A stretch of 16,771 nucleotides of DNA from positions 1 through 16,771 of IMG/VR virus record IMGVR_UViG_2698536372_000015; one strand, given 5' to 3'. The notes beneath the pieces were generated by a model. It did no database searches. It was not told where the DNA came from and was given only the letters and a program-made list of their open reading frames with translations. The stretch is from a virus. Lineage: Duplodnaviria; Heunggongvirae; Uroviricota; Caudoviricetes. Both the position numbers and the translations under genes were made by a program. This document shows, in pieces, positions 628-16,771 of the stretch. Position 1 is the stretch's first letter. Every line of letters starts with the position of its first letter.

Positions 628-879
628 TCATCTTCGCCTGCGTGCCATATATTTGCGCACCGCGCGGCGTGGACAATCTGAAGCGGTTTCTTTCTGCTGC
701 ATCAATCTCGCAGCCATGCTCAAAAAAGTCAGGCACAGCCGAAGCCCGGCATACAATAGCGGTTCCAGTGGCCACGTCTCATTGAGCACATATACCGCCA
801 TGAAAATCGAGTCGAAAACTATCGCCGCCAGCGATAACTTCATTGTCGAAAGTCGGCGGAGCTGCCGGAGTTTATTCAT
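628..879 (-). CDS. small hypothetical membrane protein, translationally coupled to the endolysin gene
   Basis: ATG at 879-877 overlaps the end of the endolysin gene (ATGAATAA). The 83-aa product has a hydrophobic segment (LSLAAIVFDSIFMAVYVL) and a basic C-terminus. No family recognised. Confidence 0.3.
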   Translation of the reverse strand: MNKLRQLRRLSTMKLSLAAIVFDSIFMAVYVLNETWPLEPLLYAGLRLCLTFLSMAARLMQQKETASDCPRRAVRKYMARRRR

Positions 880-1429
880 TGACCAGTCCCGTCAGGCAAA
901 GCTGGCGTTCTTTTTCACGGCGAATCTTTAAACCTCGCAGGGGCACGCCGTTACTGTTCACGAAATCAGGGAGATGGTTACACATATTCACCCATTCCCC
1001 TTTCTGCGCCCACTTGTGGATGGACGTTTCTACTCGCATGCCTCGCGCTTTGCTGTAGTAGGTCCGTAAGCTATTGCATCCCATATTGAATGCCGCGCTT
1101 GTCATTGCACTGAAGGCATTATCGGGCATGTCTTTGCCCCGGAAGTGCTGATTAATACAGCGTTCAGCGATCAGGATATTCTTTTCCCAATCAGCGGCGA
1201 TTTGCTGGTCGGTTTTTCGCACACCCGGCGTTACCCCGTGTGTATTACCGATCCCGTCAGTCCATACCCCCGCAGGGCACATGTATGGATCACGTCGGCA
1301 ACCTTCAGCGTTACCAATCAGCTCAAGCCCCGCCTGGTTGGTTCGCACATTGCCATTACCCATCACGATGGTAATCATCACCGCGATAGCGCAAATTGCA
1401 CCGCCTCCTGCGGCTGTTTTTCCCTTCAT
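872..1429 (-). CDS. lyz: SAR (signal-anchor-release) endolysin, glycoside hydrolase family 24 lysozyme, P1 Lyz-like
   Basis: 185-aa product from the ATG at 1429 (GAGG SD 7 nt upstream). N-terminal Gly/Ala-rich weakly hydrophobic SAR segment (TAAGGGAICAIAVMITIVMG) with Cys13, then Glu42, Cys44 and Cys51 in EGCRRDPYMCPAG, then lysozyme core motifs (GVWTDGIGNTHGV, REKERQLCLTGL). This layout matches what I recall of phage P1 Lyz. The longer ORF-track start at 1528 is rejected. Confidence 0.92.
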   Translation of the reverse strand: MKGKTAAGGGAICAIAVMITIVMGNGNVRTNQAGLELIGNAEGCRRDPYMCPAGVWTDGIGNTHGVTPGVRKTDQQIAADWEKNILIAERCINQHFRGKDMPDNAFSAMTSAAFNMGCNSLRTYYSKARGMRVETSIHKWAQKGEWVNMCNHLPDFVNSNGVPLRGLKIRREKERQLCLTGLVNE

Positions 1430-1560
1430 AAAGACCTCATAAGCGAATTTTTTACGCTCCAGGACAAACACCCATTCACAGCCAATACCGACTGACTCGA
1501 TCCCTTTAGAAGGCACAGGATAATGCAAATCACTTGTTAGCTACGTTTCAAAGATATACA

Positions 1561-1580
1561 TTATTGCTCTAATTAATTTG
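1561..1580. promoter_or_regulatory. third copy of the TTGCTCTAAT[A/T]AAT motif in the lyz-ssb divergent intergenic region; candidate late-promoter element
   Basis: TTATTGCTCTAATTAATTTG matches the reverse complement of 601-620 (19 of 20 positions). Lies between the divergent lyz and ssb starts. Direction of action not determinable from sequence alone. Confidence 0.35.
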
Positions 1581-1598
1581 TTTTATTGGGTAAGAAAA

Positions 1599-2087
1599 GT
1601 GGCACAACGCGGTGTAAACAAAGTCATCCTGATTGGTACCCTGGGGCAAGACCCGGAGATCAGGTATATACCAAATGGCGTCGCGGTCGGAAGACTCAGC
1701 ATCGCAACGAATGAATCATGGCGCGACAAGCAAACGGGCCAACAGAAAGAGCAAACAGAATGGCATAAAGTCGTTTTGTTCGGAAAACTTGCTGAAATTG
1801 CGAGTGAGTATTTACGAAAAGGTTCTCAGGTCTACATCGAAGGGAAACTTAAAACCCGTAAGTGGACAGATGACGCCGGTGTAGAACGTTACACGACGGA
1901 AATTATCGTCAGCCAGGGCGGCACCATGCAAATGATCGGCGCTCGTCGCGACGATTCACAGTCCACAAATGGCTGGGGGCAATCAAACCAACCTCAAAAC
2001 CACCAGCAATACAGCGGTGGTAGCAAACCTCAGAGCAGCGCCAATAACGAACCTCCAATGGACTTTGAAGACGATATTCCGTTTTAG
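1599..2087 (+). CDS. ssb: single-stranded DNA-binding protein (SSB)
   Basis: OB-fold SSB sequence closely resembling E. coli SSB ([50 protein letters not shown]), Gly/Gln-rich linker and the canonical acidic tail [11 protein letters not shown]. Likely GTG start at 1599; the ORF-track start at 1578 is a TTG inside the upstream motif. Confidence 0.93.
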
Positions 2088-2092
2088 AGTTT

Positions 2093-2275
2093 ATGAGTAA
2101 AAAACGACTGAAAGAAAAGCGGTGGTCCAAACGCCAACAAAAGCACGAACTCGCTAAAAAACGCCAAAGTTGGCAATGGAACGCGTTTTTAACGAACAGA
2201 ACACCCCGAGATATTGCTTTCGCTGGTGGGAAAACATTCCTGACCCACCTGAAGGCGCAATACATCAGTTTTTAA
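2093..2275 (+). CDS. possible small basic (Lys/Arg-rich) protein; may be a spurious ORF
   Basis: ATG 6 nt after the ssb stop; 60 aa, highly basic N-terminus (MSKKRLKEKRWSKRQQKHELAKKRQ). Overlaps the long-start version of the next ORF; weak SD. Confidence 0.2.
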   Translation: MSKKRLKEKRWSKRQQKHELAKKRQSWQWNAFLTNRTPRDIAFAGGKTFLTHLKAQYISF

Positions 2276-2289
2276 GCAGAGAAAAGACT

Positions 2290-3078
2290 ATGGCAGCACA
2301 AAATACTAAAACAATTCAATACCGCCTGCGTAATGGCCAGAGTGTCGAAGTGACCATCAATAATGATGGTGTACCTGGCGAAAAGGTTTCTATCTCCGAT
2401 CTGGCTATCGAAAAAACCATCATGTGCCACCTTGGCTTTACTGAAGAAGTGAGCAAAAAGCATGGTGTAGCAATCTGGAGCGCAATGGATACTGGTATGC
2501 GCAAATTCATTACTGCTCGTACCCCAGGGATGACCATGATGGACCTCATGCAGATTGCGCCGCTGTTTGAATGTGAGCCTTTAGATGTATTCAGCAATCC
2601 AGCTATCTGCCAGCAGTTATATGGTGAGGTGAAACTCGCGGTTACCCCCATTGTGCTGCATGAAGGATCGCTTGCTGGCGTGTGGAAAGTGGAGCGTATT
2701 TCAAGCTACATGCCTTTCCATGTCAACGGCGTAATCACTGGTGAAAATCAACCTGTTTCCGTTATAAAGTCAGACCTCAAGCGCGCAATTCTTGAAGCAA
2801 GTTGTCGAGTTATCGGCCTAGGCAAACAGTCTTATGTTTCCTTCCCGGCTGGCCCTGAAGGCCCGGCAGAAATTCTGATTATGGATGCCGATCTGCTCTG
2901 GCAAATACAGTTTCTAATTGGCAAAAGCATCATCCGAGCTGAAGAGCTCGATCAGTACATTACCTGCACGATGACGGATGAAGTCAAAAGTGTGGCTATA
3001 GCCAATGCCAGGAACCTATGTCGTGCTACATTGGCAGAACCGCAAGAAAACATTCCAGAAGAAACAGAAAGTGACTAA
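2290..3078 (+). CDS. hypothetical protein (262 aa from ATG 2290; alternative longer start at 2170 gives 302 aa)
   Basis: Long open frame with protein-like composition directly downstream of ssb; no motif recognised. Start choice is uncertain. Confidence 0.6.
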   Translation: MAAQNTKTIQYRLRNGQSVEVTINNDGVPGEKVSISDLAIEKTIMCHLGFTEEVSKKHGVAIWSAMDTGMRKFITARTPGMTMMDLMQIAPLFECEPLDVFSNPAICQQLYGEVKLAVTPIVLHEGSLAGVWKVERISSYMPFHVNGVITGENQPVSVIKSDLKRAILEASCRVIGLGKQSYVSFPAGPEGPAEILIMDADLLWQIQFLIGKSIIRAEELDQYITCTMTDEVKSVAIANARNLCRATLAEPQENIPEETESD

Positions 3079-3275
3079 TAAAAACCCCGTCAGTTGGCGG
3101 GGAACTCCACGTTAAATGACCAATTATTATGTTAGCTAGCAGTTAAAGCGCCTAGTCATTATCTCTTAAAGAAGTCTTTTTAACTTATCTAAATTAGTGA
3201 CACCTCCCGTTTTGCTTGCTATGGTATGCATTCATAAACCTATTCATTAATCTATTCACAACAGTAATTAAAACT

Positions 3276-4580
3276 ATGGCTACACATGCAACAACAATCC
3301 GTAGCTTGCTCAATCAAGGGCCTATGACACCAAGACAATTGGTTGAAAAACTCAGTGTTAGCCAACCAACGATATCTAGAGCATTAAGAGAACTTGGTGA
3401 TGAAATCGTTAGGATCGGAAATGGAAGATCTATTCAATATGCTTTACGAGACTCTTTTAGAGGATTCGAATCAGTCCCCATTTATCGTATAACTGAAGAG
3501 GGGTGTATTTGCGTTCTTGGTACTCTCATTCCGGTGAGGCCAGAAGGCTATGTTATGGTTGAGGATGGGAAAAATAACAGGCATAGCGATGGGTTACCTT
3601 GGTGGTTATTTGATATGCGTCCACAAGGCTTCCTTGGAAGAGCATATGCATCAGCATATGCTCTTGAACTTAACCTTCCCTCAAATCCAGAGCAATGGTC
3701 AGATACTGATGTGATCAAAGCCTTACTTAAGCATGGGCATGATGTTGTTGGTAATTTGTTAATTGGAGAGCAAGCGCGCACGCATTTTTTAGAGATGCAG
3801 CCTCCTGTTCCTGTTAATCGTGAAATTGAATATCCTGTATTAGCTTTAGCCGCTGGTGAAGGTGATGTGCCAGGTTCATCTGCTGGAGGTGAACAACCCA
3901 AATTTTGTACTTTCACAGAGCGTGGACATGTATTAGTGAAATTCTCTGCGCCTAACGACACCCCTATAAGTGAGCGCTGGAGAGATCTCTTGTTTGCTGA
4001 ACATCTCGCATTAAAAGTTCTGGGGGTAGAAACAGAAGTTTTTGATTATAACGGTCAGAGATTCTTGGAAATTCCCCGATTTGATCGTGTTGGTCAACTC
4101 GGTCGGGTAGGTGTATTCTCACTTCGTGCACTTGATGCAGAATTTGTTGGTAATGCAAGAGCAACATGGCCCTTGCTGGTTAAAGAGTTGGTAAAAAATA
4201 AGTGCGTCCATCCTGATGCGATTATTATAGCAACAAGGCTATGGTCTTTTGGTGTGCTAATAGGCAATACCGATATGCATAATGGCAACCTATCGTTTAT
4301 TAGTAGCCACGGACGCCCATATCATATTGCTCCAGCCTATGACATGTTACCTATGGGTTTTGCCCCACGCTCTGGGGGAGCAATGTCTAATGAGCTTAGA
4401 AAAACAGCACTACCAGACTTTGTAAGTCGAAAAATATGGGATGAATCTCTTGAATTAGCTGAAAAATTTTATGCATTGGCCTGTGAGGCCGACAAATTCT
4501 CAGCTAACTTTACTCCATGTTTAGAAGCACTACGCATCCACCTAGATGATTGTAAAATACGCATAGCCCGCCTGGCATAA
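3276..4580 (+). CDS. HipA-like Ser/Thr kinase with N-terminal helix-turn-helix domain (YjjJ/HipH-like architecture)
   Basis: N-terminal HTH (MTPRQLVEKLSVSQPTISRALRELG). HipA-type motifs: P-loop-like SSAGGEQPKF, catalytic GNTDMHNGNLSF, Mg-binding APAYDMLPMGF. Visibly more AT-rich than flanking genes. Start taken at ATG 3276 (MATHATT...) rather than the ORF-track 3216. Confidence 0.85.
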   Translation: MATHATTIRSLLNQGPMTPRQLVEKLSVSQPTISRALRELGDEIVRIGNGRSIQYALRDSFRGFESVPIYRITEEGCICVLGTLIPVRPEGYVMVEDGKNNRHSDGLPWWLFDMRPQGFLGRAYASAYALELNLPSNPEQWSDTDVIKALLKHGHDVVGNLLIGEQARTHFLEMQPPVPVNREIEYPVLALAAGEGDVPGSSAGGEQPKFCTFTERGHVLVKFSAPNDTPISERWRDLLFAEHLALKVLGVETEVFDYNGQRFLEIPRFDRVGQLGRVGVFSLRALDAEFVGNARATWPLLVKELVKNKCVHPDAIIIATRLWSFGVLIGNTDMHNGNLSFISSHGRPYHIAPAYDMLPMGFAPRSGGAMSNELRKTALPDFVSRKIWDESLELAEKFYALACEADKFSANFTPCLEALRIHLDDCKIRIARLA

Positions 4581-4583
4581 ACA

Positions 4584-4611
4584 AGAAATCCCGCCAATCG
4601 GCGGGATTTCT
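4584..4611. terminator. bidirectional hairpin terminator between convergent genes
   Basis: Perfect 12-bp stem AGAAATCCCGCC / GGCGGGATTTCT with 4-nt loop, 4 nt after the kinase stop and abutting the stop of the minus-strand acidic gene. Confidence 0.6.
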
Positions 4612-4920
4612 TCAATATACGATCTGGTCTACATGATCACCAAAATCATCGTCGTCGTCCTCATCGCCACCCTCTACTGCTGGCCAATCAACAAACCAGC
4701 CAGCGTAAAGATGCAGCGTTCGGAGAACATCACTTGCGGGAGCATCAAGGGTGTTAACGAATCCCATATAGCTATTGGGATTTGCCCCAGCTATGGCTTC
4801 AGCGATCATGTCCTCGGTAATGTCACCGGAGATAATGCTTAAACGCCCGGAAACTTCTTCATTATCATCAAATTCGATAATGGCATCTCCGCCTAATGGC
4901 GCTGCGATTTTAATCTGCAT
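4612..4920 (-). CDS. small highly acidic protein, translationally coupled downstream of the large minus-strand gene
   Basis: ATG at 4920 lies 8 nt upstream of the large gene's stop, with a strong SD (AAGGAG) inside that gene's 3' end. 102 aa, very acidic, C-terminal DEDDDDDFGD run. Confidence 0.6.
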   Translation of the reverse strand: MQIKIAAPLGGDAIIEFDDNEEVSGRLSIISGDITEDMIAEAIAGANPNSYMGFVNTLDAPASDVLRTLHLYAGWFVDWPAVEGGDEDDDDDFGDHVDQIVY

Positions 4921-7897
4921 TATTTAGCTCCTTTGCCACACCTAATAACAGTTCCAGCAATCCGTCACCATTCATCAGTGATGCGGCAGCGGCCTCTTTA
5001 TCATGATACAACTGAAGAGCCATAGAGAATACTTCCGTTGCTGACGTTTTGGAAATAGTCGGTGATTTCTGCCGAATTTTCCCGGTGTTACTTACTGAGG
5101 CTGGCGGGTATACCTTCGCCATATAAATATTACTCAATCGAGATCTGAAGCACCATTCAGGCTTGCCACGCCCACCGATATTGACGAAAGATGGCTTATC
5201 CCCTTCAACATTGGCCTTCAGGAATGACCGGGCTTTCTCTAACAAACCAGGGTTACTGTACTCAAGATGATGACCCAGCTCGTGCCACAGTGCGCTCGCA
5301 TTTTCATCGTTCAAATTGACAGCAACAACACCATTTAGATTTGCATATGCCCTTCCCTGGTGGTGAACTACCTTTGATAAGGTCGATATTTTCCCGCCGG
5401 TCAGGCGATAAATATCAGCAAGTTCCTTGCGCAGGTCTATCCCACCATTCTGTCCAGCGCGGGCTTCTTCCACTTCTTCTGTGATAAAAGAGTCGGCCCA
5501 CTCAAGAGCTTTTTCTTCAGATACGGATGAGTTTGCGATCGCACTGTTCATGGCAGATAACACTTTCTCGTGGACCGAACCCATACTTCGCTGATTCATT
5601 TGCCAGCGTGTCTGCGGGTTATATGAGAATCGCTTAAGTAGTTGGTCAAGCTGCTCAAGTTCTTCTTCACTGACATACTTTTTAGCCTCACCAATAATGC
5701 CAGGGAGAATATTGCCGTTAGGATTAAACGCTCGCGAAAGGAAGAGTTTCAGCGCCCCCATGCCCTCCGATGCTTCAATATCACCAATAACCCGGTTAAC
5801 AATGGCCGCACTCTTCGGATTAGCATCCGCCAACGCTCTGGCTACGATTTGCAGGGACGATACGACCTCACGCTGCATATCAGTCCTGATCTCATCAATA
5901 AACTCTGGCGTTATGCCGTGCTCTTTAAGGATATCCCGGCCTTCCGCCGTTACCCCATCGATATCACCGACATGTTTATTAACACGACTTTGCAATGCCT
6001 TAAATGCCTTCAGAATTCCACGGGCATCATCCGCTTTACTAACGGCCTTCCTGAATGCTGGCAAGAAGTCTGAGTTAACCTCATTTTGTTGATCGGCCCA
6101 CTGAATGGAGGCTTCCTTCATCTCGTCCAGAGTCAGATCACCCAACGCGGTATGGTCTGTGAATATGAGCGATAACCTCTGAACCATTTCTGCCAATGGT
6201 GATGCCGAATGCGCCGCGCTAAGGAATGCTTTCACCCTGGTTGGGCGAATGGAAAACCAGTCAATAGCTGGTGGCATATCTCCGTTTTTTATCGCCTGCG
6301 CTATCTCGTCAAAGCCATCGCGCCCAAGGGAGGATGCGTGATTTAACAAGCCGCGAAGTAACGAATTGCTGATACCGAATAATCGGCACCATTTTTTCAC
6401 GTCGGCAACAGGCATTCGAACAAAATGCGCAAGCACTTGAACAAGCTGTTCATCCTGGGGATCTGTACGGGAAAGCAGCCTGATCAGATGAATAATGTCT
6501 TTGATGCCGGATGCCCGATGTAATAGCAAGCTGGTATATGGAGCAACACCGTTGTAACTACCGCCAGAAGCTGACTCGAAAAGACCGCCAGATATCCCTT
6601 GCATACCTTCGTTTTCCAGTTCCTGAGATACCTGGCGAAGGATATCCTGTAACGACACATCGCCGCCGCCAAACATATCCCCGAGCGCCTGGCCCTGGTG
6701 CTGTAACTCATCATTGATACGTTGCGCCATCAACTTAAAGGCGGTGGCCATACGCTTCGCGCTACGGTTATTCGCGACGATGAACAACGCGAGTGCTTTC
6801 ACTTCCGGGGCCATTTCGCTGAACATATCCCCCTGAGCAATAACATCGGTAATATGCTGGCCTGACTCCTTCGATTGCCTTACCAGGTCTACCGCATCTT
6901 TCAATGCCGCCAGCGCCTTTTTATCGAGGCTATCCGCTGTCTCAATGCCATCAACAATAGTTGTCACAGCCTGCTTGTGCGCTTCTCCTGATAAAGCCTG
7001 CATCTGGACAAAATCATTGGCTGCCGCATTAAGCGCCGTCAGAACATTACGCATATCCGGATCAGGTTCTTCTGCAACCATCCTTACCAGGCGCGCATCC
7101 TTATATGCCTTGGCAAAGATCGCGTTTTGTATACGGTCTACAAGTTGCCGTGTTGGTCGCCCATCTTCAGTTACAAGGCCAGCCGCCTGTGTGGCACCAA
7201 CTTGCGTCATAAATCCGCGAATAAACGCGTCATTACTGCGGCTAAGCAGATCTCCGCTTTCTGACGGATTAAACAGCGCCATCATCGCCGGTGTTATGCT
7301 GTCGGCATCAACAAAAGCCTTTTCACTGGCTGCCATTTCCTGAAGATCAGAAATATTTGAGTCCTTGGCAAACTGAACGCGGTCAACCTTCGTTAACCGG
7401 CGGCGCACCAGTACCGGAGCCGTCATTGATTCAACCTTTTCAGTACGTATGCCGAATTCGGTCGCATGTTCAATCAGGTACTCCCGATACCGATCCGCAT
7501 TACCGTCCTGATAGGCTTTAATGATCCCCATGGTACGTCCATTACCTGACTCAACTGCATTGTCCTCACCAATTATCGGTGCGCCATGGCTGGATAATCC
7601 GGAATCGGTAAGCTGAGCAGGCCGCAAATCTTTGGATATCTGGTTAACCTGAAGAAGGCTGGATGCGCGGGTCCGGTCGCGCGGCTGAAGTTCCTGGGGA
7701 TAGTCAGGATTAATTTTCCCATCCAGAGTATTGGATACCAAAATAGCTGAGGCATCGACGATATCAAACGCTGTTTTTACCTCGTCTCCCTTCGCTGTCA
7801 CCACATACGAAACCCGCCCATAATCGGGCAGGTTCTTTAGCAGCTCGATCAGCGTTTCTATGCTGGTGGCCATTACCACCTGATCGCTTAAGCTCAT
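4910..7897 (-). CDS. large (995 aa) phage protein with an HExxH zinc-metallopeptidase-like motif; possibly an internal virion or antirestriction-type protein (position suggests P1 DdrB, unverified)
   Basis: Uninterrupted 2988-nt frame with protein-like composition. HELGHH encoded at 5284..5267 near the C-terminus. No other motif recognised; the DdrB assignment is from recalled P1 gene order only. Confidence 0.85.
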   Translation of the reverse strand: MSLSDQVVMATSIETLIELLKNLPDYGRVSYVVTAKGDEVKTAFDIVDASAILVSNTLDGKINPDYPQELQPRDRTRASSLLQVNQISKDLRPAQLTDSGLSSHGAPIIGEDNAVESGNGRTMGIIKAYQDGNADRYREYLIEHATEFGIRTEKVESMTAPVLVRRRLTKVDRVQFAKDSNISDLQEMAASEKAFVDADSITPAMMALFNPSESGDLLSRSNDAFIRGFMTQVGATQAAGLVTEDGRPTRQLVDRIQNAIFAKAYKDARLVRMVAEEPDPDMRNVLTALNAAANDFVQMQALSGEAHKQAVTTIVDGIETADSLDKKALAALKDAVDLVRQSKESGQHITDVIAQGDMFSEMAPEVKALALFIVANNRSAKRMATAFKLMAQRINDELQHQGQALGDMFGGGDVSLQDILRQVSQELENEGMQGISGGLFESASGGSYNGVAPYTSLLLHRASGIKDIIHLIRLLSRTDPQDEQLVQVLAHFVRMPVADVKKWCRLFGISNSLLRGLLNHASSLGRDGFDEIAQAIKNGDMPPAIDWFSIRPTRVKAFLSAAHSASPLAEMVQRLSLIFTDHTALGDLTLDEMKEASIQWADQQNEVNSDFLPAFRKAVSKADDARGILKAFKALQSRVNKHVGDIDGVTAEGRDILKEHGITPEFIDEIRTDMQREVVSSLQIVARALADANPKSAAIVNRVIGDIEASEGMGALKLFLSRAFNPNGNILPGIIGEAKKYVSEEELEQLDQLLKRFSYNPQTRWQMNQRSMGSVHEKVLSAMNSAIANSSVSEEKALEWADSFITEEVEEARAGQNGGIDLRKELADIYRLTGGKISTLSKVVHHQGRAYANLNGVVAVNLNDENASALWHELGHHLEYSNPGLLEKARSFLKANVEGDKPSFVNIGGRGKPEWCFRSRLSNIYMAKVYPPASVSNTGKIRQKSPTISKTSATEVFSMALQLYHDKEAAAASLMNGDGLLELLLGVAKELNNAD

Positions 7898-7996
7898 CCC
7901 TGTTACGCCTTATCCAATGTGCCGCCCCCTACGCTCCTCATAGTGGGGATATAAGGCACAGTTTTCCTCCCGGCTATTTTTGCTTAAAATAGTGAC

Positions 7997-9943
7997 ATGA
8001 AACAACAGGTGTCATTCAAATTCCGGTTAAAACCAGATGGTCAACAGGAGCGTCAAATGAGGCGCTTTGCCGGAGCTTGTCGTTTCGTTTTCAACCGTGC
8101 TCTGGCGCTTCAGAATGAGAATCATGAGGCCGGTAAAAAATACATCCCTTACACGAAAATGGCTTCCTGGTTGGTTGAGTGGAAAAAAGACACTGAAACC
8201 GAATGGCTTAAAGATTCTCCCTCACAGCCATTGCAACAGTCACTGAAAGACCTTGAGCGGGCTTACAAAAACTTCTTCCAGAATCGGGCAGCTTTTCCCC
8301 GATTCAAAAAGCGGGGACAGAATGATGCATTCCGCTACCCGCAGGGTGTTAAGCTCGATCAGGAGAACAGCCGTATTTTTCTGCCGAAACTGGGCTGGAT
8401 GCGCTACCGGAATAGCCGTCAGGTCACGGGTGTTGTGAAAAATGTCACTGTCAGCCAGTCCTGCGGTAAGTGGTACATCAGTATTCAGACAGAAAGAGAG
8501 GTATCCACTCCTGTTCACCCTTCTGCATCAATGGTCGGACTGGATGCTGGTGTGGCTAAACTCGCCACGCTGTCAGATGGCACAGTCTTTGAACCTGTAA
8601 ATAGTTTTCAGAAAAACCAGAAGAAGCTGGCGAGACTTCAGCGACAGTTAAGCCGCAAGGTCAAATTCAGCAACAACTGGCAGAAGCAGAAACGCAAAAT
8701 ACAGCGACTGCATTCCCGTATCGCAAATATCCGCAGGGACTACCTTCATAAAGTCACAACGACCGTCAGCAAAAACCACGCAATGATAGTCATTGAGGAT
8801 TTGAAGGTCAGCAACATGTCAAAGTCAGCAGCGGGTACGGTCAGCCAGCCGGGGCGCAATGTCCGGGCAAAATCAGGTTTAAACCGTTCGATACTGGATC
8901 AGGGCTGGTATGAAATGCGCCGCCAGCTTGAGTACAAGCAGCTCTGGCGTGGCGGTCAGGTGCTTGCTGTTCCGCCAGCGTACACAAGCCAGCGTTGCGC
9001 GTGCTGTGGTCATACAGCGAANNNNNNNGCTTTTCCCCGATTCAAAAAGCGGGGACAGAATGATGCATTCCGCTACCCGCAGGGTGTTAAGCTCGATCAG
9101 GAGAACAGCCGTATTTTTCTGCCGAAACTGGGCTGGATGCGCTACCGGAATAGCCGTCAGGTCACGGGTGTTGTGAAAAATGTCACTGTCAGCCAGTCCT
9201 GCGGTAAGTGGTACATCAGTATTCAGACAGAAAGAGAGGTATCCACTCCTGTTCACCCTTCTGCATCAATGGTCGGACTGGATGCTGGTGTGGCTAAACT
9301 CGCCACGCTGTCAGATGGCACAGTCTTTGAACCTGTAAATAGTTTTCAGAAAAACCAGAAGAAGCTGGCGAGACTTCAGCGACAGTTAAGCCGCAAGGTC
9401 AAATTCAGCAACAACTGGCAGAAGCAGAAACGCAAAATACAGCGACTGCATTTTCGTATCGCAAATATCCGCAGAGACTACCTTCATAAAGTCACAACGA
9501 TCATCAGCAAAAACCACGCAATGATTGTCATTGAGGATTTGAAGGTTAAAAACATGGCAAAGTCAGCAGCGGGTACGGTCAGCCAGCCGGGGCGCAATGT
9601 CTGGACAAAATCAGGTTTAAACCGTTCGATACTGGATCAGGGCTGGTATGAAATGCGCCGCCAGCTTGAGTATAAGCAGCTCTGGCATGGCGGTCAGGTA
9701 CTGGCAGTGCCGCCAGCGTACACAAGCCAGCGTTGCGCGTGCTGTGGTCATACCGCGAAAGAAAATCGCCTGTCACAAAGTAAATTCAGATGCCAGGTAT
9801 GTGGATATACAGCGAACGCCGATGTAAACGGCGCTCGTAACATTTTAGCGGCGGGGCACGCCGTTCTTGCCTGTGGAGGGATGGTGCAGTCAGGCCGCCC
9901 GTTGAAGCAGGAACCAACCGAAATGATTCAGGCGATAGCCTGA
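7997..9943 (+). CDS. tnpB: IS605-family TnpB (OrfB) RNA-guided nuclease; assembled ORF artefactually lengthened by an in-frame 738-nt duplication across a 7-N gap (true length about 402 aa)
   Basis: RuvC-I GLDAG, RuvC-II VIEDL, zinc finger CACCGH...CQVCGY, Ruv[14 protein letters not shown]. Blocks 8291-9021 and 9029-9759 are near-identical and separated by NNNNNNN; the offset is 738 nt, so the frame is kept and the translation shows XXX. Confidence 0.85.
8291..9021. repeat. first copy of duplicated 731-bp tnpB segment, ending at the assembly gap
   Basis: Identical to 9029-9452 over the first 424 bp, then roughly 15-20 substitutions by eye up to the gap. Confidence 0.8.
9029..9759. repeat. 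second copy of duplicated tnpB segment, contiguous with the tnpB 3' end
   Basis: Begins immediately after the N run at 9022-9028 and continues into the C-terminal zinc-finger region. Confidence 0.8.
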
Positions 9944-10004
9944 ACGTAGCAGGAATCCACGCCCGTCAGGGTGCGGAGGATGTCAAAAGGCAGGTGAGGT
10001 TATA

Positions 10005-10136
10005 ATGAGAAAACTATTACTACCGTTATTATTTATGGCCGGGACTGTTAATGCAGCATCAAGCGTGAAGGAGATTTGTACCGATTATACGAAATACCTT
10101 GGGCACGTTTACGCCTTTGCGATCAATGACTATTAA
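10005..10136 (+). CDS. small exported peptide (43 aa, predicted signal peptide)
   Basis: ATG with a good SD (GGTGAGG); N-terminal signal-peptide-like MRKLLLPLLFMAGTVNA; mature part about 26 aa with one Cys. Below the ORF-track length cut-off; found by reading. Confidence 0.4.
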   Translation: MRKLLLPLLFMAGTVNAASSVKEICTDYTKYLGHVYAFAINDY

Positions 10137-10157
10137 TCCATGCGTAGGAGTGGATTT

Positions 10158-10475
10158 ATGCTGATTCGTTTGTTTTTAGTGCTTTCCTTTTTAACATTTA
10201 ATGTTTTTGCTGATGAAGTTGACTTTTCGAAGGTAGATTGCAATTCAGTGGAAACAAGAAAAGCTCTTATTGAAGAATATAACGAAATATTATCGTCATA
10301 TGGAATAACAGTGGTTGATTCTTATAATCAAAAAACTATTCAGAAAGGAATAAATAAACTGGTTTGTTATGGGGTTTACCAATATTCAGATGGCTCTTCG
10401 GAGTATGTTATTTATAAAGCATACCCAAATAGTCTTGGTGAATTGATTAGTGAGTTTAAACCGATTAATGAGTGA
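10158..10475 (+). CDS. small exported protein (105 aa, cleavable signal peptide, two Cys)
   Basis: ATG at 10158 with SD AGGAG. Signal peptide MLIRLFLVLSFLTFNVFA followed by an acidic mature start. Very AT-rich coding sequence. Confidence 0.6.
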   Translation: MLIRLFLVLSFLTFNVFADEVDFSKVDCNSVETRKALIEEYNEILSSYGITVVDSYNQKTIQKGINKLVCYGVYQYSDGSSEYVIYKAYPNSLGELISEFKPINE

Positions 10476-10482
10476 ATGGAAA

Positions 10483-11262
10483 ATGAAATTATTTAATGTA
10501 ATAACATTTTGTTGTGCTATTTTTGCTGGAAGCGCGATAGCTGATAATAAATTGCCAGATTGGCTTTCTACTTCAAAAAAAGATTATGATTTAGTAAGGG
10601 TGTTCTATTTGTCTGGATTTGCCTCGAAAGCAATGAATAATCAATTTGGTTATCATTTTCCATCTGAGTTGGTTAATGATTTTAAAGATAATGAATTTGC
10701 CGCTCAGGAAAAATGGAATAAAATTTCAATTGTATATGGTGAAATAAAATCCATAAGAATGGTGAATAATGAACCAATTGTAGAGTTATTTACTCCAGGG
10801 GAAAATGCAACGCCACTAAATTATATCAAATTGAAAGTGTTGGATTCAAAACAAAACTCTCTGTTAAAACTAAAAAAAGGGGATGATATATATGCAGTGT
10901 GCTCCGGTGCTAATTTTAGTTTAGTGCCAATTCTGAGCAACTGCACTCCAGCAACTGACGTCATTGATGCTGCACTCTCTTTTTCTGGTGAATATATGTT
11001 CCCTGCTTTTGATTCTTTTTCACCTACTAAGCAAAACGTCAAATATATATTCACAAATCAAGATCCTGTTCAGATGATGAATTTTATAGGGTACCTATCC
11101 TTAGTCGATACAACGAAGGATAAGAATAAAATGGATATGGTTCGTAAGTGTACGCCTTGGAAGCCGGAATGTTCACAACAATTCGTTGATGTAATGGAAG
11201 GATTTGATAACATCATGTATAAATATGAGAGGGAATTTAAAAATTACATAGAATTAAAATAG
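10483..11262 (+). CDS. exported protein (259 aa, signal peptide, several Cys), unknown function
   Basis: ATG at 10483 is 8 nt after the upstream stop. Signal peptide MKLFNVITFCCAIFAGSAIA with a likely signal peptidase I site (no clear lipobox). Very AT-rich. Confidence 0.65.
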   Translation: MKLFNVITFCCAIFAGSAIADNKLPDWLSTSKKDYDLVRVFYLSGFASKAMNNQFGYHFPSELVNDFKDNEFAAQEKWNKISIVYGEIKSIRMVNNEPIVELFTPGENATPLNYIKLKVLDSKQNSLLKLKKGDDIYAVCSGANFSLVPILSNCTPATDVIDAALSFSGEYMFPAFDSFSPTKQNVKYIFTNQDPVQMMNFIGYLSLVDTTKDKNKMDMVRKCTPWKPECSQQFVDVMEGFDNIMYKYEREFKNYIELK

Positions 11263-11294
11263 TATTTGAAATGATAGTCAATTTAAGTTTTAAC

Positions 11295-11326
11295 AAAACG
11301 CCCATTAAAGGGCGTTTTATTGTTTT
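11295..11326 (+). terminator. rho-independent terminator of the exported-protein operon
   Basis: Stem AAAACGCCC / GGGCGTTTT with loop ATTAAA, followed by a T-rich run (ATTGTTTT). Confidence 0.7.
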
Positions 11327-11430
11327 ACTCAAAACAATCTGATTATGTGATAACCATATCATATTCCTCATTCCACCTACACTGATTACCCCCCAGACAA
11401 CAACATTCCTACTCAATGAACAAATGACTA

Positions 11431-12038
<608 letters not shown>

Positions 12039-12048
12039 GGGGGCTGAT

Positions 12049-12660
12049 ATGGGGCTTAATGTTGCTTCAGTAAAGTCTTATGTATCTTCGGCATTAACGA
12101 CGACATTATTTGGCTCCGGCGTTGGTGAGCGGGAAGTTGGTAAGCTGACGTCAATCATCATGAACAAAATGCTGTTCGCGCAAGGATGGCAGTTCTCTGT
12201 CGAAGTTGATGGTCTGGAGGGGGCAGACTTCTTTGCCAAAGACATTACCTACCACGATTACAGCATCGAATATGAAACGATTAAAATAGGCGGAGGGAAT
12301 ATCCTTCAGCCAACGGAGCGTTCGCCTGGGCAGATAACAATGATGGTCAGGGATACCGTTGATGGCCTCGTTTTGGACTGGTTTAAGACGGCAAAAGGTC
12401 GGGTGATCAATCCGGACGGTACCGGGAATATACCGTCTAAATATTTGCTCAATGTGCGTATTTATCGGTTGCTGTCCTCCGGTTTAACCAAACTGGAAAA
12501 TGAGATGACGGTATTCCCGGTCACTACCGGCGATGTCACCTATGCGCGGGATCAGGTTACGGAATTTAAGTCATTCCCAATGACCTTCGCATTGCACAGC
12601 ACGTTTAACCAATCCTCAAGTTCTTTAGCTTCCCTTCTGGGCTTTAGTTTTTCTCTTTGA
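12049..12660 (+). CDS. hypothetical phage structural protein, 203 aa
   Basis: SD GAGGGGG 7 nt upstream; starts 10 nt after the previous stop. No motif recognised. Confidence 0.7.
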   Translation: MGLNVASVKSYVSSALTTTLFGSGVGEREVGKLTSIIMNKMLFAQGWQFSVEVDGLEGADFFAKDITYHDYSIEYETIKIGGGNILQPTERSPGQITMMVRDTVDGLVLDWFKTAKGRVINPDGTGNIPSKYLLNVRIYRLLSSGLTKLENEMTVFPVTTGDVTYARDQVTEFKSFPMTFALHSTFNQSSSSLASLLGFSFSL

Positions 12661-12674
12661 ATTAAGGAGCAAGG

Positions 12675-13556
12675 ATGCTTTTACCTCTTTTCCCGCTACC
12701 ATCGCGGCCAACTGAATTGATCCAGTTCCGTCAGCCAAATATTGCTGATGCGATGCGTTTCAACTCGATAACACCGGAGGAACAAGAACAACAGACAACG
12801 GCGTATTTAAAAGCCTTGCTGGCTGAACCCGCGAAATATGATCCCCTGACATGGACGGCGCAGGACCGGATTACCGCGTTATGGTGGATATTTACTGGCT
12901 CCCGTGAAACACCGGTCGAGACATTCACCTACACCTGTAAACATTGCGGTAAAGAGCATTATTACGATTGCGATATGAATGCTCTGGCTGAAGATATCCA
13001 GGTCCTGGAAGTGGAACCGTTCATTGACGATATTGAGGTGTCTGTAGAGGGCGTGCCTTATCAATGGCGTATCGTGCCGCTTGATGGTTGGGCAATGGAA
13101 ATGCTGGAGATGCGCCGTGCAGCATTGCCACCTGAAGACGACGCGGAATTCAAAGAAGCGATCGTTGATTTGCGTTTTTGGGAATTCGCTTATCAGTGTG
13201 AACTTTATAACGATGTTAGCGGTACTCGTGAAGAGCAGGCTGAGCGTCGTTATGAAACGATCAAACGGATGGCCATTGATACTGAATTTATGAAGCTGGC
13301 GGCACACATCCGACTGGCTCATGAAAAGCTCGAACATGGTTTACCGTGCTACATCGATAAAGGCGAAATGCGTCTTCGTCTCCCGCCGCACAAATGCCCA
13401 AACCAGGATAAAAAGGAGTCCACAGAGGGTGCGTATACCCGTCTGTGGGTGCCCTTTCGGGCTACCGACTTCATTCCACAGGTGGGGATTGAAAAGCTAT
13501 CAGACCTTAGTGTCCAACCTGGTTTTGTATGGGGGTATACCGATTCAGGACGCTGA
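12675..13556 (+). CDS. hypothetical phage structural or assembly protein with Cys cluster (possible zinc ribbon), 293 aa
   Basis: SD AAGGAG. Cys cluster CKHCGKEHYYDCD plus distal Cys residues. Position directly before the tape-measure-like gene. Confidence 0.7.
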   Translation: MLLPLFPLPSRPTELIQFRQPNIADAMRFNSITPEEQEQQTTAYLKALLAEPAKYDPLTWTAQDRITALWWIFTGSRETPVETFTYTCKHCGKEHYYDCDMNALAEDIQVLEVEPFIDDIEVSVEGVPYQWRIVPLDGWAMEMLEMRRAALPPEDDAEFKEAIVDLRFWEFAYQCELYNDVSGTREEQAERRYETIKRMAIDTEFMKLAAHIRLAHEKLEHGLPCYIDKGEMRLRLPPHKCPNQDKKESTEGAYTRLWVPFRATDFIPQVGIEKLSDLSVQPGFVWGYTDSGR

Positions 13557-13637
13557 AAGGCTCACTGAATCCTATGCGTTTTTCCTGTTGGAGAAACTGG
13601 AAGAAAAACTTAAACCGAAGCGGTAGGCGATAAGATC

Positions 13638-16600
13638 ATGGAAAGAAAAAACGCCAACATTGACGATGTGATAAGGACGGTTGAAACCGCCAGCGCAAAA
13701 GAGCTGGAAGAGCTTGCAGGTATTCGGGAAGCTGTTGAAGATTTGAAAGGGGGGCGAGTTGCTACTGTTGATCCTGTCTCTCGCAGCGTGTCGGCATTAA
13801 ATCGCACAATCGAAAATTCCCGGCCTGACTTTGTGGCCAAAGCGCCATCCGTAGACCCTATTGTTGACGCAATGAAACGGCTTAATTTAGGGGACGTTTC
13901 TCGTGTAGTTCAGGAAGATGTTGCTCAACAGGAACAGCGGGCCAAATCAACCACACAAAAGGGTAAAAAACGACGCAGGAAGGCTATACCAGAGGATGTA
14001 AAGGCACAACGGACCGAAGCAGCCGAACACGCTCGCGAAATGTTCGGTCAAAAAGGCGGTGCGCAAAAAAGCCAAAACCAACGCGATGCGCGTGGTCGTT
14101 TTATTGGAAAGTCAGGGAGTAAGGCCGCAGCGGAAGATGCCCGTGCTGAACGAGCAGAAAAGGCCAGGCGAAAAGAGGATGATGAGCGTCTAAATGCTGA
14201 ATCAGGTTTATTAAAAAAACTGTCAAAAGTAGCTGAAGGCATAGGTAACCCTTCAGAGACTCGTGCCGTCGATGCGTTAGGTTACGCCGTTGCTGGTCCA
14301 TTGTGGGCAGCAGGGAAGGAGCTTGGCGGGATATCAAAAGAAGTTGGTGGATCGCTTAATGGTGCCAGAAAGTCTATTGCCGATGTGATTCGTGGCAATG
14401 ACGATAACAGCCGTAGAAAAGGTTTTTTTAGGCGTAAATCGCAAAATAGTGCCGATGTCGTTCAGGTTAACACCCAAAAACGGACGGTTCAGGAACTTCA
14501 GGAGCAGACCAGCGAAATTAAAGAGGGCAATGACAAGATTCTCCGTGCCCTTGATCAGATAGCCAAAAACACCGGTAAAAAGAAGGGCGGCTTGCTGTCC
14601 AAACTATTTAGCCTGTTAGGGAAGGGGGCCGGTGGCGTCGCGTCGTTGTTAATGGGGCGTGGCATGCTGAAAAAAGCTGGAGCACTCGCTTTTGGCGCTC
14701 TGGGGGCAAAGAAACTTGTAGGAATGCTACGCGGTGGTGGCAAGAAGACTCTCGCTCATGAAGGCGGAGATTTGGCTGCCCGGGCAGCAGGTAAACTTGG
14801 ATTAAAGGCAGTTGGTAAAGGGGCGTTACGCGCAATTCCCCTAGTCGGCACAGTGGCTGGAGGTATTTATGGTGCGGTAACCGGTTGGAATGATACAGAA
14901 GCGCAACGTCGAGCGTTTGGGCTTAAATCAGGACAAGATCCATCATTCCAGCAAAAAGCCGCTTATACGTTAGCTAATGTTCTTGATATGGGGGGACTGG
15001 TATCTGGTATTAGCAGCGCCATTGGTGAGGTTCTCAAATCACTTGGATTTGAGGATATCGGCAATATGTTGCAATCATTTTCGACGGAAAGTATTGCCCA
15101 GGCCATTGATAGTGGGATTACCAACTTAGAAACATATATTTCTAATCTTGGCGACACCATTTCTACCAAGTTCGATGATTATACAGCAAAGATTGGTGAT
15201 GCTATTTCTGCATGGTTCAGTGACACCACAAAGAATCTGAACGAAAAATTAGACGCCATCAAAAACTTCTTTACTGTCGATAACCTGAAACAGGTTTTCA
15301 GTGATGCAATTGATAGTGCAATTGATTTCATTAAGAATCCTGGGAAATACATTAAAGAGGCTGGCAGTAATCTATGGAGTGCCGCAAAAGAGCTTTCAGG
15401 TGAGGTTGCAGATGCCGCTGTTCAGAGCACCCCTGTGGCCTGGGTTGCATCAAAGCTAGTCAACAAAGCGGATGCGAAAGAGGTTACACCTGAATTAAAA
15501 ACACCAGCTAAAGAAAGTCAGGAGGACAATGCTCCTAAGACTGAATATACCCCTAAAAAGGCTAATATTGTCACTCGTGTTGTAAATGCATCCCTAGATA
15601 CGGCGAAAGATAGCAATAAAACAGTTAAAGAAACTGCCAATCAGATTATCAATGCAAATGCCGTAGAAACGGGCAATCGCGCGTTGCAGAAAATTGATAA
15701 TGCTATTGGTCAAAATAGCTCATCATCATCGTCGCTTAATACTACTGGCACCAGGAATGACATTCAGAAAGCTGCGGATACCTACAACAATGGCAACTTA
15801 GATGTAAAAGTCGGAAGCCTTGGCGCTGAAGGTAAGGCAAATCTCGATAAGTTGGCTCCGTATTTTGCTGAACTAGAGAATAAATATGGCCTTCCTGAAG
15901 GTACTCTTTACGCGATCGCTGCAACTGAATCTGGTGGTGATCCTAACGCAAAATCTACGCTTACAAGATCACCAAATGGAAAGCTAAGTGGTGGCGCTCT
16001 CGGAATGTTCCAGTTTACGAGCGTTGCTCGTGAGGAAACTGGATTATCCCGGGAAGATTCTTTTAATCCGGAAAAATCGGCAGAAGCTGCGGCTCTTCTC
16101 ATGAGCAAGTATCTGAAGCAAGCCAATGGAGACTTAAACGAGGCCATCACTGCATATAACGCTGGGTTTGGCACTATCAATAAGTGGAAAAAAGGCACAG
16201 GTGACTTATCGAAAGAAAACCGTGAGTACGCGATCAAGGTCAATACTCATCGTGCTCGCTATTTAGGTGGTGAAATCTATACACCTGGAGCAGGAGCACA
16301 GGGTGGGGCGCAATATGGAGTGAGGGGACCACTGCCTGATAACGCTGTTATCGATCAGTCTACTGGCCTGGCGTTTACCCCTGGTGATAGCCCGTTTGAG
16401 AAAGGTGGTCTGGTAGACAAAATTGGCAATGCTGTTGGCGTTAACGATCTGGTCAACAAATTCATGAATGGCCGGGGTATGCGTCGGGAAGTCGTTCAGG
16501 GAACGCTCGAAGAACGTGCACGAGGGAAGGGGACCGCAACAGCAGCTGGCAATGTGTATGTTGATACTCCGATGCCAGTTGAAGAGGCACGTCCGGTGGC

Positions 16601-16771
16601 CAACAACTCAAGTTACTTTGACCAGCTCGGCGCACAAATGGGGATTGATGGACTGTATGACAAACTCATTAATGCCCGGGGAATGCGCTCAAATAATTCT
16701 CCTCAACCAGCCTCCACGTCCCAGGTGACGACTGCCGCCAACGATTTGCAGCAACCAACCGGTCGTATGCA
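13638..16771 (+). CDS. 3'-partial tape-measure-like structural protein with lytic transglycosylase (SLT) domain, P1 Sit-like; continues beyond window end
   Basis: Frame open from ATG 13638 to the window end (over 1040 codons). Basic and coiled N-terminal region, Gly-rich hydrophobic segment (GKGAGGVASLLMGRGMLKKAGALAFGALGAKKLVG), and SLT motifs AIAATESGG (Glu codon 15927-15929), GALGMFQF and AYNAGFG. Confidence 0.88.
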   Translation, partial: MERKNANIDDVIRTVETASAKELEELAGIREAVEDLKGGRVATVDPVSRSVSALNRTIENSRPDFVAKAPSVDPIVDAMKRLNLGDVSRVVQEDVAQQEQRAKSTTQKGKKRRRKAIPEDVKAQRTEAAEHAREMFGQKGGAQKSQNQRDARGRFIGKSGSKAAAEDARAERAEKARRKEDDERLNAESGLLKKLSKVAEGIGNPSETRAVDALGYAVAGPLWAAGKELGGISKEVGGSLNGARKSIADVIRGNDDNSRRKGFFRRKSQNSADVVQVNTQKRTVQELQEQTSEIKEGNDKILRALDQIAKNTGKKKGGLLSKLFSLLGKGAGGVASLLMGRGMLKKAGALAFGALGAKKLVGMLRGGGKKTLAHEGGDLAARAAGKLGLKAVGKGALRAIPLVGTVAGGIYGAVTGWNDTEAQRRAFGLKSGQDPSFQQKAAYTLANVLDMGGLVSGISSAIGEVLKSLGFEDIGNMLQSFSTESIAQAIDSGITNLETYISNLGDTISTKFDDYTAKIGDAISAWFSDTTKNLNEKLDAIKNFFTVDNLKQVFSDAIDSAIDFIKNPGKYIKEAGSNLWSAAKELSGEVADAAVQSTPVAWVASKLVNKADAKEVTPELKTPAKESQEDNAPKTEYTPKKANIVTRVVNASLDTAKDSNKTVKETANQIINANAVETGNRALQKIDNAIGQNSSSSSSLNTTGTRNDIQKAADTYNNGNLDVKVGSLGAEGKANLDKLAPYFAELENKYGLPEGTLYAIAATESGGDPNAKSTLTRSPNGKLSGGALGMFQFTSVAREETGLSREDSFNPEKSAEAAALLMSKYLKQANGDLNEAITAYNAGFGTINKWKKGTGDLSKENREYAIKVNTHRARYLGGEIYTPGAGAQGGAQYGVRGPLPDNAVIDQSTGLAFTPGDSPFEKGGLVDKIGNAVGVNDLVNKFMNGRGMRREVVQGTLEERARGKGTATAAGNVYVDTPMPVEEARPVANNSSYFDQLGAQMGIDGLYDKLINARGMRSNNSPQPASTSQVTTAANDLQQPTGRM

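Follow-up and report, generated by a model that had tools for sequence, protein, structure and literature searches.

In E. coli genetics, bacteriophage P1 is a workhorse, and the Dar system that it encodes is a textbook case of proteins that are injected together with phage DNA and act against type I restriction. DdrB is one of the six proteins of this virion-borne antirestriction system; purified P1 virions yielded 39 unique peptides of it, and the same study describes it as a helper when DarB is added to the capsid. In the P1 record, the operon reads lydA-lydB-hdf-darA-ddrA-ddrB-hxr and is assigned to the late promoter LPdar, with ddrB (P1_gp022, "possible metallopeptidase") and hxr (P1_gp021, "possible repressor; homolog of Xre") at its end. 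The name Hxr is also annotated in RCS47. Here we analyze the ddrB-hxr gene pair in a stretch of 16,771 nucleotides (nt) from the caudoviricete record IMGVR_UViG_2698536372_000015, referred to below as the window, and consider what the small protein Hxr may do next to DdrB.

One of the closest described protein classes is formed by polyvalent-protein MPTases (Iyer, Burroughs, Anand, de Souza and Aravind 2017, PMC5512222), which are C-terminal zincin-like domains with an HExxH motif carried by virion-delivered multidomain proteins. That paper uses DdrB as its example, gives the domain the name MPTase, reports a processing of DdrB to ~76 kDa that precedes packaging, and proposes autoproteolysis as the cause. 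A small, coupled, acidic downstream gene is not described in the passages of the paper that were searched. The locus is already catalogued as ddrB-hxr and the peptidase domain of DdrB has been predicted since 2017; the remaining interest lies in the second gene. The overall explanation that we favor, with somewhat better than even confidence as a whole, is that this is the ddrB-hxr pair at the end of the dar operon of a P1-like prophage, encoding a virion protein with a predicted self-processing peptidase domain and a small protein that may be its partner.

The ddrB-hxr gene pair

Window positions 4614-7913 align with P1 24246-27545 over 3300 bp at 98.2% nucleotide identity and in the same gene order. 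An initial annotation of this DNA, made without database searches, had guessed that the pair could be the DdrB end of the P1 dar operon, and this alignment bears the guess out; its placement of the two open reading frames (ORFs), 4910-7897 on the minus strand for a protein of 995 amino acids (aa) and 4612-4920 on the minus strand for one of 102 aa, was also exact. The ddrB coding sequence (4910-7897, minus strand) is assigned to the internal head protein of the Dar antirestriction system from its ORF, its identity to P1, and an end-to-end match to phrog_2299. The hxr coding sequence (4612-4920, minus strand) is assigned from its ORF, the presence of Hxr in P1 and RCS47, and phrog_2292, a family of unknown function. 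The likeness to P1, and also to P7, RCS47, SJ46, and other P1-like plasmids, extends to the protein lengths of 995 and 102 aa, the 11-nt overlap of the two genes, and their position at the end of the dar operon. The pair is almost certainly ddrB-hxr, the last two genes of the late dar operon, with the DdrB anatomy set out below, and, judged by these alignments, the source of the window is a P1-like plasmid prophage.

The two genes are tightly interlocked. The hxr ATG (4920-4918) precedes the ddrB TAA (4912-4910), giving an overlap of 11 nt (4910-4920, minus strand), and a Shine-Dalgarno sequence, AAGGAG (4928-4933, minus strand), lies inside the K-E codons of ddrB, 7 nt upstream of the hxr ATG. 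The initial annotation had likewise placed the start of the small gene inside the last codons of the large one, behind such a sequence. Both elements are conserved: among eight distinct lineages the Shine-Dalgarno sequence is AAGGAG in six, AAGGAA in one, and CAGGAG in one, while the overlap measures 11-17 nt in all diverged loci (L003, L005-L014, and L159-L161). Each diverged hxr homologue that was located sits directly 3' of a gene for a ddrB-ParB protein of 929-1015 aa, and in L003, L005-L014, and L159-L161 it falls within a recognizable dar operon (LydB, DarA_N, DarA_C). Based on this architecture of overlap and Shine-Dalgarno sequence, ddrB and hxr are predicted to form a translationally coupled pair. 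The broader claim that the two are expressed as a unit holds insofar as the overlap and the Shine-Dalgarno sequence are conserved in every diverged orthologous locus; in the window, the promoter context of the pair cannot be read because an IS605-family element containing a run of N lies upstream of ddrB.

Far from being absent in related genomes, the hxr ORF is intact in 80 of 80 P1-like IMG/VR contigs, with its first 80 residues near-invariant, and tblastn matches to the family, labeled as a hypothetical protein, come from 503 enterobacterial plasmid records. More distant relatives were sought in an exhaustive profile search of 1.84 billion representative proteins (E <= 0.001), which returned only 18 matches; these include six full-length relatives at 32-44% identity and one tandem duplication. 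Word-indexed searches with Hxr, as with the DdrB C-terminus, gave nearly only near-identical proteins, so that the exhaustive profile search was needed to reach the relatives at 32-44% identity. Those relatives are 96-100 aa long, share the invariant positions P8, G53, V55, N56, V65-L66-R67, W75, and W79-P80, and end in a very acidic tail that closes with [IV]-[NY]. These comparisons indicate that Hxr is a real conserved protein of ~100 aa whose gene is tied to ddrB. Two long repeat proteins that also matched the Hxr profile, P0034 and P0036, appear to be compositional or repeat artifacts and were set aside. The tandem duplication is a natural one: in L014 (8001-8555), a 184-aa protein of net charge -30 follows a 997-aa DdrB with a 17-nt overlap.

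The operon appears to end directly behind hxr. An intrinsic-terminator-like hairpin with a 13-bp stem (4583-4612), followed by a U-rich tract (together 4576-4612, minus strand), starts at the last base of the hxr stop codon; its folding energy is -27.5 kcal/mol (z = -6.4), and 0 of 200 shuffled sequences fold as well. A simple terminator scan did not flag this hairpin.

Domain layout of DdrB and its predicted C-terminal peptidase domain

DdrB is built as a polyvalent protein, with a ParB-type N-terminus, a fast-evolving middle, and a gluzincin-like C-terminal domain. The DdrB-ParB domain (aa 36-167; 7397-7792, minus strand) matches Pfam PF18763 (ddrB-ParB, E = 4.2e-39), the sole family that Pfam finds on DdrB, and is described in Iyer et al. 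2017 (PMC5512222). A conservation profile built from six full-length DdrB orthologues from diverged P1-like contigs (43-95% identity) has 32-72% invariant columns over aa 1-450 and 16-36% over aa 801-995, with 0-6% over the hypervariable middle in between (aa 451-800; 5498-6547, minus strand). This middle looks like a module that diversifies rapidly or has been swapped, and the processing point reported at ~700 aa is close to it.

The zincin-like metallopeptidase (MPTase) domain occupies aa ~820-995 (4913-5440, minus strand) and contains HELGHH (aa 872-877; 5267-5284, minus strand), the predicted HExxH zinc-binding and catalytic motif. An HExxH motif arises by chance in 2.6% of 20,000 composition-preserving shuffles of the 995-aa protein, and HE[LIV]GHH is present in 9 of 9 P1-like sequences (the six full-length and three partial orthologues). 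Conservation reaches well beyond these. The C-terminal domain has relatives at 23-30% identity, mostly far shorter than DdrB and all lacking a precomputed Pfam domain, in which H872, E873, H876, E879, E914, Y925, K928, Y930, and the motif T-E955-V-x-S-M are kept; H872, E873, and H876 are invariant or nearly so, while H877 is not kept. Glu955 in T-E-V-x-S-M (codon 5033-5035, minus strand) is invariant in all relatives and is a candidate third zinc ligand. In a structure model, HELGH lies within a helix (48-62, model numbering) and E955 starts another (137-146); from this modeled layout, which would be that of a gluzincin with Glu as the third ligand, we infer the ligand role.

Sequence searches assigned the domain to no peptidase family, as Pfam searches with DdrB and eight C-terminal domains and phmmer and profile searches of the PDB all came back empty; it is structure comparison that supports a zincin-type fold. 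The zincins of anthrax lethal factor and the Pro-Pro endopeptidases (MEROPS M34; PDB 6psn, 1yqy, 9g0j, 6fpc) are only 13-17% identical to the DdrB domain, without a Pfam or PDB sequence match, and DdrB differs from them by an added β-hairpin region between the HExxH motif and the Glu helix. ArdC, a plasmid antirestriction protein with a C-terminal metalloprotease (PDB 6sna), likewise has a zincin-type domain and is delivered with incoming DNA.

The initial annotation had taken HELGHH as a possible zincin-type signature, the same call that was published in 2017, and this holds: the motif and the downstream Glu are kept down to 23-30% identity. Since the motif is conserved and the fold is peptidase-like, rather than the motif being unconserved or the fold unrelated to peptidases, the peptidase reading stands, and we regard the C-terminal domain of DdrB as a zincin-like peptidase by well-supported prediction, although this prediction is not new. 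It is quite improbable that the domain is instead a catalytically inactive zincin fold used for docking or packaging only, in the manner of the N-terminal domain of anthrax lethal factor. H872, E873, H876, and E955 are invariant or nearly so down to 23-30% identity, which is an active-site pattern, whereas degenerate domains of the lethal factor N-terminal type have lost HExxH. An inactive fold would also sit poorly with the processing of DdrB to ~76 kDa reported in PMC5512222.

A reading frame antisense to ddrB (6945-7343, plus strand) corresponds to iddB in P1 (132 aa). An open antisense frame over a similar part of ddrB is present in L007, L012, L014, and L158 and absent from L005, L010, and L159, and the iddB-type frame may be a by-product of codon usage.

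Hxr and the acidic genes downstream of MPTase domains

Hxr contains 23 Asp and Glu residues against three Lys and Arg, for a net charge of ~-20 over 102 aa and an isoelectric point (pI) of ~3.2, so that the description "extremely acidic" in the initial annotation was apt. Its charge of -0.196 per residue is by a wide margin the most negative among the scored window ORFs of >=60 aa, the next lying at -0.061. Nine of the 23 acidic residues fall within the last 17 aa, in an acidic tail (aa 81-102, AVEGGDEDDDDDFGDHVDQIVY; 4615-4680, minus strand) that is predicted to be disordered, its residues 81-102 having a predicted local distance difference test score (pLDDT) of <50. The acidic character and a C-terminus of the form [IV]-[NYH] are kept in all members of the Hxr family. 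The predicted structure consists of three β-strands, two helices, a fourth strand, and the disordered tail, at low confidence (pLDDT 61, predicted template modeling score 0.49).

Among the 80 near-identical P1-like contigs (loci L021-L100), the poly-Asp run of Hxr is 4 to 9 residues long, with every length change in frame, and in a few variants the last ~10 residues are replaced as well. Charge is spread unevenly over the dar operons of L005, L007, L010, L012, and L014: DarA has a net charge of -27 to -48, DdrB of -19 to -25, and DdrA of -3 to -17, Hxr is strongly acidic, and the DarA_N protein at the Hdf position is basic (pI ~10-10.8). A comparison of Hxr with DdrA, likewise a small acidic protein of the Dar system, showed no relationship.

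In P1 and many derived records, Hxr is labeled an Xre-like transcriptional repressor. The sole support for this label is a note in the P1 record of 28% identity over ~58 aa to the Xre repressor, and the likeness of Hxr to Xre-family helix-turn-helix (HTH) repressors is confined to a size of ~100 aa and this historical annotation. Hxr differs from those repressors in having no HTH_3 match, a pI of ~3.2, a predicted core with β-strands (in the low-confidence model), and only three Lys or Arg residues. Pfam returned no family for Hxr at E <= 0.1; with eight members of the Hxr family and a cutoff of E <= 10, there was still no HTH or other family, bar one spurious match to BofC_C, and no HTH matches appeared in fold searches with the Hxr model. 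A repressor function is extremely improbable on this evidence. We conclude that Hxr is very probably not a repressor and that the database label is unsupported by its sequence.

An alternative, raised in the initial annotation together with that of a dedicated chaperone, is that Hxr is a DNA mimic of the Ocr/ArdA type, whose carboxylate-rich surface would fill the groove with which type I restriction enzymes bind DNA, whether co-injected with the Dar proteins or acting in the producing cell. Ocr (T7 gp0.3) and ArdA are, like Hxr, small, very acidic, encoded on mobile elements, and found in an anti-type-I-restriction context; their charge density is in the same range as the -0.20 per residue of Hxr. 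Furthermore, hxr lies within an operon that protects against type I restriction, and as a member of the LPdar operon Hxr would be made late, alongside virion cargo. That Hxr is missing from the virion proteome argues only weakly against packaging, because its only tryptic sites are K4, R26, and R67, leaving ~1 usable peptide, which is below the two-peptide threshold of the proteome study. However, Hxr has no sequence or fold match to Ocr or ArdA (the fold comparison being made with a weak Hxr model), much of its charge resides in a disordered tail of variable length, and hxr is a late gene coupled to that of a virion protein, not an early one. We consider a DNA mimic improbable.

The arrangement of an MPTase gene followed by a small acidic one recurs outside P1-like elements. 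Behind each of three distant MPTase genes, for which no Pfam domain is precomputed, lies a small acidic ORF that closely abuts or overlaps the gene; the products are 152 aa with a net charge of -18, 119 aa with a net charge of -17 and a poly-D/E tail, and 112 aa with a net charge of -7.5. Scanning IMG/VR with an alignment of the distant MPTases yielded 65 diverse loci (L101-L165), 61 of them with a readable downstream ORF; the P1-like MPTase alignment used as query returned only near-identical loci, and the diverse set came from the distant MPTases alone. With the caveat that start codons were chosen crudely and that many loci are mutually related, the downstream ORF starts at or before the MPTase stop in 53 of the 61 (with an ATGA overlap in 25), carries a net charge of <= -5 in 53, and is <=135 aa long in 37. 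The N-termini of ten host proteins were scanned: three contain ddrB-ParB, one a portal with MuF, one InPase, and five nothing recognizable. As these N-termini differ, the MPTase end is what the loci share. In one example (L155, 439-3345), a 969-aa protein comprising portal, Mu-F, and a DdrB-type MPTase has behind it an acidic ORF of 80 aa with the C-terminus ...PDDPDIIY.

In at least 35 loci, the downstream gene opens with a domain of ~100 aa that is followed by an acidic stretch. These opening domains sort into three families, related to one another at hhalign probabilities of 78-97%, and are found either by themselves or in fusion with the cargo domains LPD3, InPase, PBECR3, and DUF2958 of polyvalent proteins. 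The ~100-aa domain with its acidic linker may represent a leader module of polyvalent virion proteins that has so far gone undescribed. Homology of the downstream acidic ORFs to Hxr was considered and rejected, since hhalign gave probabilities of 0.1-3% against families A-D and of 0.3-1.7% against single ORFs. Because this homology is unsupported, we keep the arrangement as a positional and compositional parallel only. The ORF downstream of a ddrB-ParB protein in L158 is a borderline relative of Hxr (probability 49%, E = 1.8e-4).

The leader module raises the alternative of Hxr as a cargo-free leader domain or packaging adaptor, the stand-alone form of a module that in other phages would tether effectors to the MPTase-bearing head protein for encapsidation and later release by cleavage. 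Consistent with this, the genes downstream of MPTases usually overlap the stop codon and open with the ~100-aa domain and acidic stretch, alone or fused to cargo, and Hxr is laid out similarly, opening at the N-terminus with a strand and an [ST]P.G-like turn and continuing with helices, a hydrophobic strand whose last residue is P, and an acidic run. P1 moreover uses N-terminal capsid-targeting signals, as in DarB. Nevertheless, an hhalign probability of <4%, with a score within the shuffle null, leaves homology of Hxr to the leader families unsupported; Hxr itself has no cargo and was undetected in virions, and the same crude start-codon choice and relatedness of loci apply to the counts on which the comparison draws. 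An adaptor role for Hxr seems unlikely to us.

We return to the explanation favored here, a predicted self-processing peptidase with Hxr as its possible partner. In this model, the peptidase domain would cleave DdrB, or else Dar proteins packaged with it, while the head is being assembled or afterwards, and Hxr would be made in proportion to DdrB through translational coupling. The folded core and acidic tail of Hxr might bind the peptidase end of DdrB, keeping the peptidase domain latent or chaperoning it until assembly. The C-terminal 176 aa of DdrB are its only net-positive part (+3 to +7), while the orthologues have overall net charges of -20 to -27. The specific role of Hxr as a peptidase partner or latency factor is put forward tentatively, at less than even odds. 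A general rule across phages, in which the C-terminal MPTase of a polyvalent protein comes with a dedicated, coupled, acidic partner, either stand-alone or fused to effectors, is rather doubtful at present; under such a rule, the partner would time peptidase cutting or dock cargo for encapsidation.

Several observations weigh against this model. No demonstration of DdrB peptidase activity was found in the literature searched. Fold searches with the weak Hxr model (pLDDT 61) gave nothing significant, and hence no structural pointer to an inhibitor or a chaperone. In the comparison of Hxr with the downstream acidic ORFs, the hhalign score of 10.2 compares with a column-shuffle null of 8.5 +/- 1.8, and 18 of 100 shuffles score at least as high. 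DarA and DdrA are acidic too, and since the late operons of phages commonly contain overlapping starts and acidic proteins, neither coupling nor charge is specific by itself. Finally, ddrB and hxr were both non-essential for plaque formation in a CRISPR interference screen, so no phenotype guides the assignment. A search of the accessible literature turned up no experimental statement on Hxr; the original descriptions of Dar (Piya et al. 2017) and of the P1 genome (Lobocka et al. 2004) lie outside that search.

Genomic context and significance

The window is a mosaic of P1-like segments. Positions 94-547 correspond, in reverse, to P1 48660-48207, and positions 632-3052 to P1 20085-22505, with lydD, lyz, ssb, and isaA. 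A segment with a HipA-like kinase gene (3053-4582) takes the place of the IS1 and isaB that lie downstream of hxr in P1. The hxr-ddrB segment (4614-7913) is next, followed by an IS605-family element (7914-9985) and by a second reversed segment (9987-16771, P1 48061-41259) with sim, pmgC, tub, pmgB, and sit. The HipA-like gene (3216-4580, plus strand) encodes a 454-aa protein with an N-terminal winged HTH (MarR/ArsR-like) and a HipA_C kinase, termed YjjJ-type in plasmid records; it is convergent with hxr, and the hairpin at 4583-4612 is common to both genes. PADLOC gave zero matches for DdrB or Hxr.

As in RCS47 and SJ46, and in contrast to P1, ddrB is preceded here by the IS605-family element. 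Beyond this element, with its N run, lies the sim/pmgC/tub/sit block where P1 has ddrA-darA-hdf, and ddrA, darA, and hdf are not within the window. The N run (9022-9028) joins two overlapping partial copies of an IS605-family tnpB (RCS47 31230-32254 and 31524-32480), and a 648-aa "TnpB" ORF (7997-9943) is an artifact of reading through these seven N's. Where ddrB meets the sim block there is probably a gap in the scaffold, located within a repeat, and the junction should not be taken as a loss of ddrA-darA-hdf. An IS-mediated inversion removing the rest of the dar operon was also considered, but given the N run within the IS a scaffold join is no less likely. The P1 late promoters LPlyz (1517-1535, minus strand) and LPsit (11422-11440, plus strand) both occur in the window as exact copies, while no P1 late-promoter motif (-22 box/-10) occurs upstream of ddrB within it.

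The interest that remains in Hxr lies in an unsupported annotation that has propagated, in its conserved coupling to the peptidase end of DdrB, and in the similar arrangement seen in other phages. A practical value of the analysis is the correction of a repressor label copied across records. The unsupported label and the strict coupling of Hxr to DdrB make a simple hxr deletion worthwhile, and mutants, antisera, and restriction assays exist for P1. If Hxr controls the processing or packaging of DdrB, this would explain how a potentially dangerous peptidase stays quiet in the cytoplasm and would bear on efforts to use the P1 head for protein delivery. If the more general rule of a dedicated partner is correct, the repressor label would be wrong, the Dar system would have an overlooked seventh component, and the partner domain would be usable as a handle to load foreign proteins into phage heads.

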